NCBI GenBank assembly: GCA_044070495.1
Contig: JBIPSI010000016.1
Coordinates: 74,450-138,449 of the forward strand
Source: Spirulina sp.
Lineage (GTDB): Bacteria > Cyanobacteriota > Cyanobacteriia > Phormidesmidales > Phormidesmidaceae
Length of the DNA stretch: 64,000 bases
Direction of reading: 5' to 3'
The notes under the pieces were generated by a model. It saw nothing but the letters and a program-made list of their open reading frames with translations, ran no database searches and had not been told where the DNA came from. Below, piece after piece: positions 7,929 through 12,473 of the stretch. A program made the translations under genes and the position numbers. Positions within the stretch are counted from its first letter, which is position 1. Each line of letters opens with the position of its first letter.

Positions 7929-8038
7929 CGCGAAGCAATGCACCAAAGCCATATACAGGGAAATTCGTGATGAGTAAGCGGTGCATTGTGGCCAAAATGA
8001 TTGATCGCGCCATTGCCGAAAATGTTGGTGCCGCGAAT
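7929..8038 (+). repeat. Hairpin element, copy B, just upstream of the Y1/HUH gene
   Basis: CAATGCACC(7936-7944)/GGTGCATTG(7980-7988) perfect stem; shares blocks with copy A. Confidence 0.7.
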
Positions 8039-8264
8039 GTACCCTACGGCTATGGCGAGACCTAAACGCAGTTTTCAGACGGGCTATTGCTACCACGTTA
8101 CGGTTCGCTGCAATAACCGCGAGTTTCGATTAATTCGGGATGAGTGCCGGGAGATTTTGCTGTACGCCTTGGAGCGCTGCAAGGCAACATACGGCTTCAA
8201 GCTCTATGCCCTGTGCATTATGAGCAACCATGTGCATTACCTGATTGAGCCTGGTGGGGTAGAA

Positions 8265-8320
8265 TTCAAAGTTCAAAGTTCAAAGTTCAAAATTCAAAGT
8301 TCAAAGTTCAAAGTTCAAAA
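8265..8320 (+). repeat. Heptamer tandem repeat (TTCAAAG/A) x8
   Basis: Eight contiguous 7-mers ending at the A of the ATG at 8320. Confidence 0.95.
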
Positions 8321-8694
8321 TGGAAAAGTCTGTTCAGCCCATTACGGAGAGAACGTTTGCGTTTGCGGTGCGGATTGTGAAGCTCTGTCAGACGGTGGGA
8401 GCTACGATGGGGGTGAGCCAGCCTTTGGTGAGGCAGTTGATCCGGTCGGGAACATCGGTGGGGGCTAATGTGGAGGAAGCGCAGGCGGCGCAAAGTCGGG
8501 CAGATTTTATCCACAAAATGGAAATTGCGCTGAAGGAGCTACGGGAGACTCGCTACTGGTTGCGCTTGCTAGTGGCGACCGACTTGGTGCCAGAGGAGCA
8601 AATGAGGGGATTGATGGGTGAGGCGGAGGAGTTGGTGAAGATTATGTCGAAGATTGTGGTGAATACGAAGGCGAGGAATAAAGTTCAAAATTGA
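8320..8694 (+). CDS. Four-helix bundle protein (23S rRNA IVP / TIGR02436, Avd-like fold)
   Basis: RTFAFAVRIVKL...QLIRSGTSVGANVEEAQAAQSRADFIHKMEIALKELRETRYWLRLL. Confidence 0.93.
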   Translation: MEKSVQPITERTFAFAVRIVKLCQTVGATMGVSQPLVRQLIRSGTSVGANVEEAQAAQSRADFIHKMEIALKELRETRYWLRLLVATDLVPEEQMRGLMGEAEELVKIMSKIVVNTKARNKVQN

Positions 8695-8762
8695 AAATTC
8701 AATGTTCAAAAAGGTCAACTTAGACTTCTTTATTTTTTGAATTCATAATTTTGAATTTTGAA
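8684..8762. repeat. Degenerate heptamer repeats: four direct (8684-8711), then four inverted (8735-8762)
   Basis: TTCAAAA TTGAAAA TTCAATG TTCAAAA ... TTTTGAA TTCATAA TTTTGAA TTTTGAA. Confidence 0.9.
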
Positions 8763-9248
8763 TTGATATGCAACAGGGCTTTTTTTACGACTACAGCAAC
8801 TACGGCACCTACGACCGTTTGACCACGGATGGCCTGACGCAATGGCACCCGTCTTTTTTGGCGTTGGGGGCCACGCTGGAACTCTGTGCTGAGGCGTATC
8901 GGAAATTTTGCAAAAAATATAAGCCCAAACCCAAGCCAGAGCGGCGCAATACCTGGGGCAGCAAAAAACTGGCGGCGATTCGGCAGAAGATGAAGGCCAA
9001 AAAAAAGACCCCTGGCCAACAAAGCCTGTGGGATGAATGGCAAGCGCCGATGGATGCGGTGCAAAAGGTTGCTAAGAAATTTGTATTAGCGAATTGTTTG
9101 AACCCAGATGTGGTAAGTGCCCGATTTGAGGCCAATACGACCTGACGCCCGGTGCCAGGTAAGCGATCCCCGAAACACCTAGTTTTCCGTGCAGAGGGGG
9201 TCGGTAATCATTCTTTTGGATCGGGCTGAAGCGCTTATCTGCTACAGT

Positions 9249-11522
9249 TTACAAGTCTCTGTGCGAGAGAAGAGATGCCCACCCCCCCCAAACCCCCCCA
9301 GGAAATTCTCCTGCGGGGGAAAAAGAAGGGTTGGCTTTTAGGTCGCTGTAGTTCAGGTAGCTTCCGTCCTTGCGCCAGCCGACGCGATCTGCAAAGTCTT
9401 CCCAAGTTTCTTCATGATACTTGCCATCGAGCGGGTTGCCGCATTCCACATAAAGTTGCTTTTGTACGCTGAAGCCAAACTTGCCTTGGCTGTACTTCAC
9501 CCATAGCCCATCGAGGTGCAGCAAATCAGGGCAAGGAAAGTTGAGTAGCTCATTCGAGTAAAGAATTCGTCCAAACTCTTTGCCATAGGTTTGCAGCATC
9601 AAGCGCCAGGTTTCCTCATCGGATTCTCTCCATTGGCCCTGTTGCAGGTATTCCTCTAGCTGGCCAAAACGGCGGATTTTGATATCGGCCACTAGGTCAT
9701 CATCTAAACGGCGGCGGTTAACGCGCAGGCAATCGTAGGCTAGGGATGCGGCGGCGTGGCTGCGGCGATAGGCGGCACGGAGCAAGTTGGTGGGGTTGAC
9801 CTGGGCAACGTAGAGCAGAACGGTGCCCTTCCAGTATTCGTTGTCGAAGTTTTGCAAAAGCAGGTCTTCGTAGCTGGGGTCTCTTTGTACCTGATCTTTG
9901 ATTTGGGTGGCGGCTAGGTATTCTTGAAAGCTGCGGTGGGCAAATTCGTAGCCGTCGTCTTTTTTCACCAGCAGTTCGCTCACCCGTTCAATGGTTTGGA
10001 GAAAGGGGCGAGGGGCAACGGTTTCGTCCTGGTCAGCCAAGCCCTGTTGAATCAAGTCGAGCAGGGCATCGACGGGAATCACCTGCTGTTCGGCCTTCAC
10101 CATGGCCAGAGCGACGTTTTGTAACACGGCCTGACTCGCCTCGGCGGGCAGGGGCAAATCCACCTTTTTGGCCATGGGGCGATCTCCCAGTTGCAGTTTG
10201 CAAATGCCGGAATATAACTCGGCCTGACGCTGGGGCAGTTGTTCGTTGGGGTAGCTGCGGTGAAACATGGCGATCATATTCAGCATCAGCGGATTTTCGG
10301 CCATGCTTTCCAGTTCTGGGCGATTGTCGATTTGGCTCAGCAGGTTTTCGGCCCGTTGCTTGGCAGCTTCTTGCACATCGGGTGTCAGGCGGTTGCCCCG
10401 ATGAAAGCGCTCTTGGCACAGATACCACTGCTCCACAAAGCGGCGGCGTTGGTCTTCGTCAAAGGGTTGCACGGCTAGGGGCGTTTGCACCCTTTCGGCG
10501 GAGTAATCGGTGTCGTAGGCGGTGGGGCGCGAGGTGAGAATAAACACCGTGTTTGGGTACGCCTGCATTTGGTGGGTAATCCACTGGCTAACGGCGGGGC
10601 GCTGGGCTTCGGCAACTTCGTCAAAGCCGTCGAGCATCACCAGCAGGCGTCCGGTGTGCAGCAGGTTTTCGGCCCAGGAGGTCGGGATATCTAGAGCCTT
10701 GCCCTGGGCTAGGGCTTTGGCATGATGCTGGGTGATCAGTTCTGGCAGGGCGGGGGCATTGGGCTGGGCAATCGTGTCTCGCCAGGTGCGGAGGTACAAC
10801 AGCACGGGGATAAGGCGAGGGGCTTTGTAGCGACAGCGCACCAAGCGAGGGCGAGTGGCATAGAGATAGGTGAGGTGGCGCAGCAGGGTGGTTTTGCCAA
10901 AGCCGCCGTAGGCTTTGATCACCAAATGGCGAAACTGGGGCGTTTTGGCACTGAGGGCGAGGATATCCCAAATTTGCTGGGTGGGCCGCTCCTGCATCTG
11001 CTGAAGGATGTCTTCGGGCTTGTCGCCAAAGCCGGGTAAGGTGGGCAGGGCTTGGCCTTCAAAATTACGCAAAAACTCACTGCTGAGCTTCAGCGGTACA
11101 TAGACTTCATCCAGGTCAGGATTCAAAATGCCAGAGGGCAGGGGTACTTCGTTATGGCTCACATAGGCACGACAAGCGCTGGCCTGAGCTTTGAGGTACT
11201 GGCCTTCCGTTCCCGAAAAGCGCCAACGAATTGCCCGATCCAGCCGATCAAGGAAAGCGACCAAGGCATCGGCATCCTGGGTGCCACGCTCCCCGGCAAT
11301 TTCCCCCAACCGAGCCGTAAAGTTGCCCGTATACCTGGCCCACACCGCCGTTACCACCATGGCCGGAAACGTGAGCATGGCCATCGCCCACTCTTGCTGA
11401 AGTAAAAAGTGTGCAAAGGCCCAGCCACTCCCCCCCAACGGGCTCCACTGGATCAAGGCATCCACAGCCTTTTGTACGTAGCGACGTTCAGGGCTGGAAT
11501 TCGGGGCAGGTGGCTGAGTCAT
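9249..11522 (-). CDS. NACHT NTPase with C-terminal GUN4 domain
   Basis: Walker A GGFGKTT, Walker B MLDGFDEV, ILTSRP, NPLML, FAHRSFQEYLAA; GUN4 motifs FPCPDL..LD.LW..YSQGKFGFSVQK and FADRVGWR. Confidence 0.92.
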   Translation of the reverse strand: MTQPPAPNSSPERRYVQKAVDALIQWSPLGGSGWAFAHFLLQQEWAMAMLTFPAMVVTAVWARYTGNFTARLGEIAGERGTQDADALVAFLDRLDRAIRWRFSGTEGQYLKAQASACRAYVSHNEVPLPSGILNPDLDEVYVPLKLSSEFLRNFEGQALPTLPGFGDKPEDILQQMQERPTQQIWDILALSAKTPQFRHLVIKAYGGFGKTTLLRHLTYLYATRPRLVRCRYKAPRLIPVLLYLRTWRDTIAQPNAPALPELITQHHAKALAQGKALDIPTSWAENLLHTGRLLVMLDGFDEVAEAQRPAVSQWITHQMQAYPNTVFILTSRPTAYDTDYSAERVQTPLAVQPFDEDQRRRFVEQWYLCQERFHRGNRLTPDVQEAAKQRAENLLSQIDNRPELESMAENPLMLNMIAMFHRSYPNEQLPQRQAELYSGICKLQLGDRPMAKKVDLPLPAEASQAVLQNVALAMVKAEQQVIPVDALLDLIQQGLADQDETVAPRPFLQTIERVSELLVKKDDGYEFAHRSFQEYLAATQIKDQVQRDPSYEDLLLQNFDNEYWKGTVLLYVAQVNPTNLLRAAYRRSHAAASLAYDCLRVNRRRLDDDLVADIKIRRFGQLEEYLQQGQWRESDEETWRLMLQTYGKEFGRILYSNELLNFPCPDLLHLDGLWVKYSQGKFGFSVQKQLYVECGNPLDGKYHEETWEDFADRVGWRKDGSYLNYSDLKANPSFSPAGEFPGGVWGGWASLLSHRDL

Positions 11523-11750: not shown

Positions 11751-11921
11751 CTAGCTGCCGTGGCAGCCGCAGCCCTTGTGGCCACAGCCGTCGCCGCTGG
11801 TGTGCCCGTTGGCGCAGGCCTCGCTGCAATAGTAATGGCCGTCTTTTTCTAGGGCTTTGCTGGTATCAACAATACACAGGCAAGATTCGCAGGCGCACTT
11901 CATTTGGGTTACGGCGGTCAT
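11751..11921 (-). CDS. smtA: Metallothionein SmtA (56 aa, absent from the ORF track)
   Basis: Manual translation MTAVTQMKCACESCLCIVDTSKALEKDGHYYCSEACANGHTSGDGCGHKGCGCHGS. Confidence 0.96.
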   Translation of the reverse strand: MTAVTQMKCACESCLCIVDTSKALEKDGHYYCSEACANGHTSGDGCGHKGCGCHGS

Positions 11922-12092: not shown

Positions 12093-12473
12093 ATGTCCCC
12101 CTTGCCCCACCCACCCACTCCTGAGTCTGATCCGCCCACCGTTGAGCCAAGGGCTGAGTTGGATCACCCGGGCCCTGAGATTCTGAGCCAAGAAAAGGCA
12201 GAGCGGATGGCGGAATTCTTTGGCGGATTGGGTGATCCGAACCGCTGGCGCATTTTGTCGGCCCTAGCCTTGGGAGAGCGACGGGTGGGAGAGTTGGCGG
12301 CGGCGGTGGCCATGAGTGAATCGGCGGTGTCGCACCAGTTGCGAACCCTCCGCAATCTGCGCCTCGTGAGCCGCCAGAAACAGGGGCGTACGGTGGTGTA
12401 TCGCCTCACCGATCACCATATTTTTGATCTCTACCATGCCGCCTCAGAACACCTCGATGAACCGACAGACTAG
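12093..12473 (+). CDS. smtB: ArsR/SmtB zinc-sensing repressor
   Basis: [34 protein letters not shown], alpha5 site DHHIFDLY...EHLDE. Confidence 0.92.

Follow-up and report, generated by a model that had tools for sequence, protein, structure and literature searches.

A probable frameshift-tolerant, hypervariable end-module of cyanobacterial GUN4 sensor domains in Spirulina

The stretch of DNA analyzed here, called the window throughout, comprises 64,000 nucleotides (nt) of Spirulina sp. (GenBank assembly GCA_044070495.1, contig JBIPSI010000016.1, positions 74,450 to 138,449). The locus of interest is the 3' end of a gene for a NACHT protein with a C-terminal GUN4 domain, which faces a convergent gene resembling those for RAYTs (REP-associated tyrosine transposases, with REP standing for repetitive extragenic palindromic sequence). 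With a probability of roughly 0.55, this locus is an instance of a conserved end-module of GUN4 sensor domains in cyanobacteria, one that is hypervariable and tolerates frameshifts. The module has a G/T-rich tract within the GUN4 coding sequence, a short tail that terminates in all three frames, and a conserved non-coding block. Its recurrence in 52 tails from 30 genomes, with all three frames in use, argues that it is neither a product of chance nor a local oddity. The main features, in window positions, are as follows.

9249-11522, minus strand: NACHT-GUN4 gene, 757 amino acids (aa), from the open reading frame (ORF) list and Pfam; the annotated frame has the ending SLLSHRDL-stop
9311-9300, minus strand: G-E-F-P codons GGA GAA TTT CCT, the fixed left border of the tract; alignments hold to GAATTTCC and then break
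9299-9276, minus strand: hypervariable G/T-rich tract of 24 nt, stop-free in all frames
9275-9235, minus strand: three-frame tail, TCTCTTC TCTCGCACAGAGACTTGTAAACTGTAGCAGATAA, containing the 20-mer core and running to the third stop
9146-9234, minus strand: conserved non-coding block of "type B", ending ...TTACCTGGCACC, with GGCACC at 9156-9151 (from alignments)

The three-frame tail

In the encoded protein, the Pfam NACHT domain (PF05729) covers residues 206-366 with 51.4 bits against a cut-off of 26.7, and the translation has the P-loop GGFGKTT; the GUN4 domain (PF05419) covers residues 618-748 with 106.5 bits against a cut-off of 29.2, matching profile positions 7-132 of 141. Read on the minus strand, the tract consists of G7 (9299-9293), TTT (9292-9290), G8 (9289-9282), T (9281), and GGGCA (9280-9276). 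The tail then reads ...ASLLSHRDL to a TAA (9251-9249) in frame 1, ...LFSRTETCKL to a TAG (9244-9242) in frame 2, and ...SSLAQRLVNCSR to a TAA (9237-9235) in frame 3; the last bases of the stops (9249, 9242, and 9235) are spaced 7 nt apart. A preceding sequence-only reading had singled out the G7-TTT-G8-T-GGG tract, the three endings, and the 7-nt spacing, all of which are confirmed in the sequence, and had proposed that the three endings occur among other GUN4 proteins.

This proposal was verified in a set of 52 distinct tails from 30 genomes. Every tail in the set has at least 50 open codons upstream and, within 70 codons, a motif of the G-x-[FLY]-[PI] type, and exact duplicates had been dropped. 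FSRIETCKL-stop is used by 27 tails, SSLASRLVNC...-stop by 16, and SLLSHRDL-stop by nine, with one tail of about 41 nt throughout. Variability per column is independent of the frame in use in the 52 tails, with no consistent excess at third positions. The first stop (core+17) is kept in 50 of the 52 tails (TAA in 27, TGA in 20, and TAG in three), although its frame is used by only nine genes; the second stop (core+24) is kept in 47 and the third (core+31) in 30. Another 12 have AGC at the third position, and these, as a group, are probably the type A tails that end in ...STSQF-stop or ...STSQS-stop, with the stop 9 nt beyond. The ending in every frame resembles helix alpha7 of GUN4, having the form [SR]-[LI]-x-[STN]-[HC] and two or three more residues before the stop. 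The SLLSH ending parallels ASLLSHP of this genome's own Gun4, and the R-[IL]-x-[TN]-C-x-x-stop ending parallels ...FLxRLxTCxL-stop of Gun4-like proteins of about 200 aa in relatives. The tail is a rare natural example of a short sequence overprinted for equivalent endings in three frames.

The 20-mer core, TCTCGCAYNNAGACTTGTRA, has 50 matches with up to two mismatches in 41 relatives, compared to 12 for the reversed control. At least 43 of the 50 lie directly 3' of a listed GUN4 match, and six of the remaining seven have two mismatches. In an even draw of 401 genomes across the phylum, with at most one mismatch, the core occurs in 66 genomes and in 37 of 156 genera, all of the same class as the host; the reversed core has 19 matches in those genomes, mainly in one genus. 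The tail DNA is almost invariant across the class. This genome has seven GUN4 domains, and two others (on contigs C39 and C23) carry related tails in the remaining two frames. The module also terminates non-NACHT GUN4-domain proteins of about 270-590 residues, and the sequence-only reading was thus too narrow in assigning it to NACHT receptors.

Two loci depart from this organization. At L043 (G034:C48) the frame-0 stop has been lost from the tail and the protein runs about 30 residues longer. L052 (G005:C46:2046-2211) has a 95%-identical copy of tail, block, and RAYT 3' remnant together, about 250 nt past the GUN4 domain, and the intervening stretch codes for a hydrophobic, transmembrane-looking segment in place of the G/T tract.

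The hypervariable tract

The tracts preceding the 52 tails follow an invariant G-x-[FL]-P motif, range from 24 to 104 nt in length, and consist of 44.6% G, 32.9% T, 11.3% A, and 11.2% C (about 78% G+T), with equal composition at codon positions 1, 2, and 3. DNA of G and T only codes for Gly, Val, Trp, Cys, Leu, and Phe alone and has no stop in any frame; 25 of the 52 tracts are stop-free in every frame. Glycine codons within the tracts are mostly GGG (100), followed by GGT (53), GGA (25), and GGC (6), compared to GGC (218), GGT (103), GGA (97), and GGG (79) in the 120 codons upstream. Runs of at least seven G are present in 12 of the 52 tracts, compared to 7.4 +/- 2.1 in composition shuffles.

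A variable G/T window between conserved flanks, with all three frames in use, had been predicted and was found when homologues were compared. Seventeen locus pairs share at least 85% identity over the 120 nt past the tail; in every one of them the tracts are only 0.33-0.61 identical, apparently the chance level for such a composition, and in ten the frames differ. In the two best pairs the downstream sequence is 97% and the upstream sequence 87-88% identical, while the tracts are 0.41 and 0.54 identical. In both length and sequence, the tract turns over much faster than the flanks do. The closest cassette relative of the window comes from genome G005, and identity between the two is 85-88% in the final 180 nt of GUN4 and 93-100% in the block and the 3' part of RAYT; the two tracts (24 and 41 nt) cannot be aligned, with similarity ending exactly after GAATTTCC and restarting at TCTCTTC. 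In four metagenome runs aligned to the window, many contigs match over the tail and block; their similarity breaks off at 9273-9276, beyond which they have C/A-rich plus-strand sequence. Among the public runs, all made up of contigs from unrelated metagenomes, the sampled words were present to 29% at most, and none represents the population of this organism.

Two further loci have unusual tracts. The tract of L021 includes partial copies of the tail start. At L069 (G050:C1:3431779-3432291), a close cassette relative, a G/T-rich filler of 25 nt stands in for both tract and tail as well as for the block's first 50 nt, and the GUN4 ORF continues through the RAYT gene in antisense.

Position of the tract in the GUN4 fold

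Aligned to Synechocystis GUN4 (1Y6I), the genome's own Gun4 has GHLP at 205-208, LLNQLRGVR at 209-217, and alpha7 from V218, and the G-E-F-P of the window protein equals Gly205-Pro208 (GHLP). Excerpts of Verdecia et al. (PMC1084334) place Pro208 and Leu210 in the palm and Arg214 and Arg217 at the porphyrin carboxylates. In the window, the stretch past G-E-F-P is GGVWGGW and, by homology mapping, the equivalents of Arg214 and Arg217 are absent.

Residues 608-757 were modelled with AlphaFold on an alignment of 29 sequences; the model has a pLDDT of 91.4, with the tract as a loop (pLDDT about 78) and the tail as a helix at 141-145. Compared to 4XKC, the GUN4 structure bound to Mg-deuteroporphyrin, the model has a VIA Z of 19.4 and a root-mean-square deviation of 1.6 A over 133 residues, with 8-150 superimposed on chain residues 85-228. 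The predicted structure thus has the "cupped hand" fold of GUN4. In this model and by homology, the tract replaces the ligand-contacting Arg214/Arg217 end of the porphyrin-binding alpha6/alpha7 loop, and the tail replaces alpha7. The ligand-facing position originally proposed for the variable segment agrees with this placement.

The conserved block and the RAYT-like gene

The remaining features of the locus lie between 7897 and 9145.

8052-8252, plus strand: RAYT-like N-terminal fragment, MARPKRSF... to ...SNHVHYLIEP (Pfam Y1_Tnp); residues 2-68 of the intact relatives align at 8055-8255
8253-8767, plus strand: insert of 515 nt splitting the RAYT gene, with a four-helix-bundle gene (23S_rRNA_IVP/TIGR02436) at 8320-8694
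8768-9145, plus strand: RAYT-like C-terminal fragment, MQQGFFYDY to the stop (alignment to relatives)
8030-8047, minus strand: GTAG-tagged REP-like 18-mer that differs from GTAGGGTGCATTCGCGGC at one position and immediately precedes the RAYT start codon
7897-7946, plus strand: dispersed repeat of 50 nt with 20 matching copies elsewhere in the genome, marking the outer limit of similarity among related RAYT loci

The block is about 90 nt long, lies between the tail and the RAYT gene, and contains a conserved GTAG. In four pairs of loci (L017/L021, L021/L074, L017/L074, and L009/L015) the block is 0.88-0.93 and the tail 0.73-1.00 identical, compared to 0.55-0.75 at the fourfold-degenerate sites within the final 60 codons of RAYT (0.40-0.75 when all seven pairs are counted). 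Since the block is more conserved than the adjoining silent sites, it is constrained as DNA or RNA, and the conservation expected of it by the sequence-only reading was borne out. The type of block tracks the RAYT clade and not the upstream gene. An Rfam search over 8700-9600 with E values up to 10 returned two sub-threshold chance matches only. A consensus fold of the tail and block with alifold (31 sequences, both strands, RNA and DNA parameters) gave a 5-bp hairpin with no covariation; single-strand DNA folding of the same region gave z-scores of -0.12 and +0.42 and no significant hairpin. No promoter or terminator was found by scanning the block.

The stop of the Y1/HUH gene ends at 9145, 103 nt from 9249, and the gene is convergent with the GUN4 gene and split by the 515-nt insert, just as the sequence-only reading had it in describing a broken HUH gene about 100 nt away. 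Intact relatives have 255 aa and the motifs NHVH and YIHANP; the local copy retains the HVH motif, but the segment with the catalytic tyrosine (YIHANP) has been lost to the insert. The intact relative at L021 scores 72.1 bits (E of 4e-20) against the NCBIfam REP_Tyr_transpos cut-off of 80; with a score under the equivalog cut-off, the family is called RAYT-like here and not an equivalog. A sequence search of the PDB with an intact RAYT gave zero matches. Pairwise dN/dS values of 0.03-0.16 with dS of at least 0.5 indicate purifying selection and old copies.

The linkage between GUN4 and this HUH family suspected at the outset is present from both sides. Of 31 loci of the RAYT family (at least 46% identity, 41 genomes), 23 are beside a GUN4 tail and one is not; the other seven, three of them at contig ends, are outside this comparison. 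A Y1 gene is present at 24 of the 49 assessable tails, convergent in all 24 at 122-352 nt from the core and near full length in 11; the other 25 have no RAYT within 470-1400 nt. In one of the 24, L025 (G026:C80), the Y1 gene is of a different family (31% identity, with HYH and YIHQNP) and is convergent at the same position past the GUN4 tail. This assembly, which is 97% complete, has the RAYT family as fragments only, together with one unrelated Y1 gene (G000:C3:236416-236727). Any RAYT-dependent step would therefore currently be off in this genome, and the copy acting in trans that the sequence-only reading called for was not present in the assembly.

No conserved left end or second copy of the block was found 5' of RAYT, where the flanks differ among loci. 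An insertion sequence of the IS200/IS605 type was considered and rejected, there being no conserved 5' end and no significant hairpin in the 3' block, with copies that are old (dS of at least 0.5). Compared to genome G004, the NACHT region and the first two thirds of GUN4 are 80-98% identical, and identity falls to 40-66% from about 9450 to about 8970. This drop points to cassette exchange, with ends in the conserved KFGFSVQ region and inside RAYT.

The REP-like 18-mer has 37 matches with at most two mismatches in this genome, and full copies consist of GTAG and GGTGCATT-CGCGAAGC-AATGCACC. It lies 5' of the RAYT start in the window and at L010, L011, and L015, with none on the 3' side; at loci without RAYT the same 18-mer is found 46-199 nt past the core. 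At L002 (G000:C23:67856-68139), 14 nt of the block are left after the C23 GUN4 tail, then comes the REP 18-mer, and past it are two permuted fragments of the RAYT 5' region (corresponding to window 8047 to 7897 and then 8168 to 8050).

Inside the insert, the four-helix-bundle gene lies between long inverted arms made of heptamers, with (AAAGTTC)n at 8261-8337 on one side and the inverted copies, extending to 8764, on the other. The four-helix-bundle family of this gene presumably includes the Avd proteins of diversity-generating retroelements (DGRs). Another gene of the 23S_rRNA_IVP family is directly past the GUN4 tail at L031, at +88 to +538 from the core.

Proposed mechanism and alternatives

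According to the end-module reading, the tract would change chiefly by insertions and deletions (indels), arising by slipped-strand mispairing within runs of G and short repeats of G/T; occasionally the start of the tail would also be duplicated. A frameshift would alter both the length and the sequence of the loop where canonical GUN4 grips the porphyrin carboxylates. Because G/T-only DNA is stop-free in all frames and the tail repairs every ending, such a frameshift would not be an off switch, and the locus would be of the contingency type but lack an off state. Homologous recombination may also exchange whole cassettes, which would span the final third of GUN4 and everything up to the 3' end of RAYT. 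RAYT and the block would be a linked pair of enzyme and cis-site travelling with the module, for which DNA nicking, cassette exchange, and regulation are candidate roles. Four features fit frequent indels that are tolerated: tracts whose divergence is saturated, a composition that is equal at every codon position, a tail overprinted in three frames, and stops that persist where the frame is unused. The last three of these point to selection for frame tolerance.

Several points weigh against this reading. The tracts differ wholesale and not by single G residues, so that homopolymer slippage alone does not explain them, and the enrichment of G runs over composition is modest (p of about 0.03). 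A high rate at present is inferred only from comparison across species and paralogues, and part of the G/T bias could reflect a preference of the protein for Trp/Gly/Val loops. Because the loci are paralogues or kin, the counts are not independent. The reading also offers no established function that would explain why the block is so strongly conserved and why RAYT is under purifying selection.

These last two features are accommodated by nuclease-driven junctional diversification, in which RAYT would bind the block, with its conserved GTAG, on single-stranded DNA and nick the CT-rich start of the tail; 3'-end extension or imprecise rejoining would then add, delete, or duplicate bases at the border of tract and tail, and the tail would have evolved to absorb the shifts. 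We consider this explanation unlikely on balance, and the same doubt applies to its fuller form, that a RAYT-family HUH nuclease was recruited as the site-specific initiator of a V(D)J-junction-like rewriting of the GUN4 ligand loop, independent of reverse transcriptase (RT), with the three-frame tail guaranteeing a product. It is favored by the tight GUN4-RAYT linkage, fixed in orientation and distance, by purifying selection on RAYT, by the conservation of the block above that of silent sites, and by the sharp right border of the tract. The tail begins TCTCTTCTCTC, a repeat of C-T steps, and E. coli TnpA_REP, as described in excerpts of PMC3333891, requires GTAG, cuts single-stranded DNA between C and T with relaxed specificity, and can exchange strands; the same excerpts contain a model for linker diversity through alternative sites. 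The copies of the tail start within the L021 tract and the filler that replaces tract, tail, and 50 nt of block in G050 would also be expected of such a process.

However, 25 of the 49 assessable tails have no RAYT, and the A+C content of their tracts (median 0.24) is not significantly higher than that of tracts with RAYT (median 0.16, p = 0.14). The block has no conserved hairpin or REP, and selection to keep the essential Pro208 motif could account for the left border. We know of no polymerase or terminal-transferase partner of HUH enzymes, which also counts against the nuclease. By eye, no IS608-like fixed target tetranucleotide was present at the ends of the 52 tracts. The idea that G/T-only tracts are a means of avoiding RAYT cleavage between C and T on both strands was rejected: CT and AG together occur 216 times in the tracts and the shuffle mean is 216, and this lack of depletion is a further point against a nuclease acting there. 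The system proposed by the sequence-only reading, in which a nuclease varies the tip of a NACHT receptor without RT, therefore stands in part: the variation, the linkage, and the lack of a template were found, but the comparison of tails with and without RAYT, the undepleted C-T steps, and the missing hairpin give no support to the nuclease as the cause.

RAYT may instead be a domesticated or selfish, REPtron-like resident that settled with its flanks 3' of an ancestral GUN4 cassette and was spread along with the cassette, the block being its own cis-site and the variability of the tract an unrelated drift of low-complexity sequence in a loop whose porphyrin function has been lost. The GTAG-tagged REP family, with a copy directly 5' of the RAYT start among its 37 matches, is consistent with this, as are the fragmentary state of many RAYT copies and the association of block type with RAYT clade; the 18-mer at sites from which RAYT is gone looks like the result of excision or deletion between GTAG sites. 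Class 2 RAYT-like Y1 genes without classical REPs are described in excerpts of Quentin et al. (PMC6006769), and this too agrees with a selfish resident. The three-frame overprinting, the stops in unused frames, and the equal composition of codon positions remain unexplained, though, and the tail and block stay conserved after RAYT loss, while the RAYT 5' flank is not conserved across loci. Such a resident is quite improbable as the whole explanation.

Less probable still is an element acting at the RNA level, with the tail and block as a shared 3' mRNA region or antisense target, for example of read-through RAYT transcripts, and the frame incidental. Conservation of nucleotides independent of frame, constraint on the block, and convergent transcription with a block that has no terminator would suit an RNA element. 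The region has no conserved secondary structure or Rfam match, however, and stops that persist through changes among TAA, TGA, and TAG, along with an alpha7-like peptide in each frame, are signatures of selection on protein.

DGR mutagenesis, for which the genome has two DGR-type RTs (contigs C15 and C54), and a plain artefact or pseudogene, for which the error-prone sequencing of G7 and G8 runs might speak, are scarcely credible, since the variation is in length and not in adenine-specific substitutions and the architecture is seen again across 30 genomes, where the tracts differ and each of the three frames is used. A search of the assembly for a template-like copy of 9200-9750 returned only the sequence itself and a 70% paralogue; a DGR can thus be excluded here despite the two RTs elsewhere, and no template repeat accounts for the variation, as the sequence-only reading had supposed. 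The RTs, at C15:570-3100 and C54:9500-13500, adjoin FGE-sulfatase/C-type-lectin-like targets, which suggests that the genome also runs classical DGR diversification on other sensors.

Comparison with known systems

Slipped-strand phase variation at simple sequence repeat (SSR) contingency loci, including 3' repeats that alter the C-terminus, is found in Neisseria, Campylobacter, and Helicobacter. The GUN4 module is similar to these loci in having a homopolymer or short-repeat tract in a coding region, where indels shift the frame, in a gene family of the conflict type. Unlike SSR loci, it has no "off" frame, as the conserved, overprinted tail supplies equivalent endings, each with its stop, whichever of the three frames is read, and its G/T-only tract turns over wholesale and has a conserved block and RAYT attached.

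Bacterial NACHT/NLR-related proteins with a C-terminal GUN4 domain have reportedly been found, and the window protein is like them in having a NACHT NTPase with GUN4 at the sensor position. In excerpts of PMC7159879, GUN4 in conflict systems is treated as a tetrapyrrole sensor; that part of the account does not mention a variable tract, a three-frame tail, or a RAYT link. In the literature searched, excerpts of PMC7517822 and PMC6006769 included and with supplements outside its scope, there was no account of the tail, of the tract, or of GUN4 linked to RAYT/IS200. Canonical GUN4/Ycf53 (1Y6I, 4XKC, and 1Z3X; PMC1084334, in excerpts) shares the fold, the G-x-L-P motif, and an alpha7-like terminal helix. 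In the module, by contrast, the hypervariable Gly/Trp/Val tract takes the place of Leu209-Arg217, the segment with the porphyrin-carboxylate arginines; no sequence follows alpha7, and GUN4 is joined to NACHT or to other effector or switch domains.

In cyanobacteria, DGRs diversify the sensor domains of STAND, kinase, and caspase proteins, according to excerpts of PMC7517822 (see also PMC10907252). As described there, they resemble the GUN4 module in that the diversified part is C-terminal and binds ligand, in multidomain conflict or signalling proteins of the same classes, and in having conserved sequence directly 3' of the variable region. The GUN4 module differs from them, on those descriptions, in having no RT, template repeat, or adenine-specific changes, in varying in length and frame, and in having as its target the GUN4 fold and not a C-type-lectin/FGE fold.

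The RAYT-like gene family shares with the REPtron/RAYT systems, as presented in excerpts of PMC3333891 and PMC6006769, the H-U-H and Y-x-x-x-N-P motifs (here NHVH and YIHANP), low copy number, purifying selection, and, 5' of the gene at some loci, a dispersed GTAG-tagged REP-like repeat. Compared to the same presentations, it has a C-terminal extension of about 120 residues and a score under the equivalog cut-off; its 3' flank is a conserved, unstructured block joined to the end of a host gene and not a REP hairpin, and it is associated with one protein domain and not with intergenic repeats.

Many immune-type and signalling proteins of cyanobacteria have GUN4 as the domain at the sensor position. 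In this large subfamily, the replacement of the stretch for the porphyrin carboxylates by a hypervariable loop with a frameshift-tolerant end points to a diversifying recognition surface and not to a fixed metabolite sensor. If the nuclease explanation were true, the ligand loop would be rewritten in cyanobacterial NLR-like and other GUN4-ended proteins, with a functional product after every event. To our knowledge, there is no agreed cellular function for the RAYT class, and the tie of a RAYT-like enzyme under purifying selection to one defined module of a host gene offers a concrete substrate for testing such an enzyme.

Neighboring open reading frames

Upstream of the NACHT-GUN4 gene, a Cys-rich ORF of 56 aa at 11751-11921 (minus strand) has a translation that we take to be that of an SmtA-type metallothionein. 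The ORF at 12093-12473 (plus strand), which adjoins it, presumably encodes an ArsR/SmtB-like repressor, again judging by its translation.

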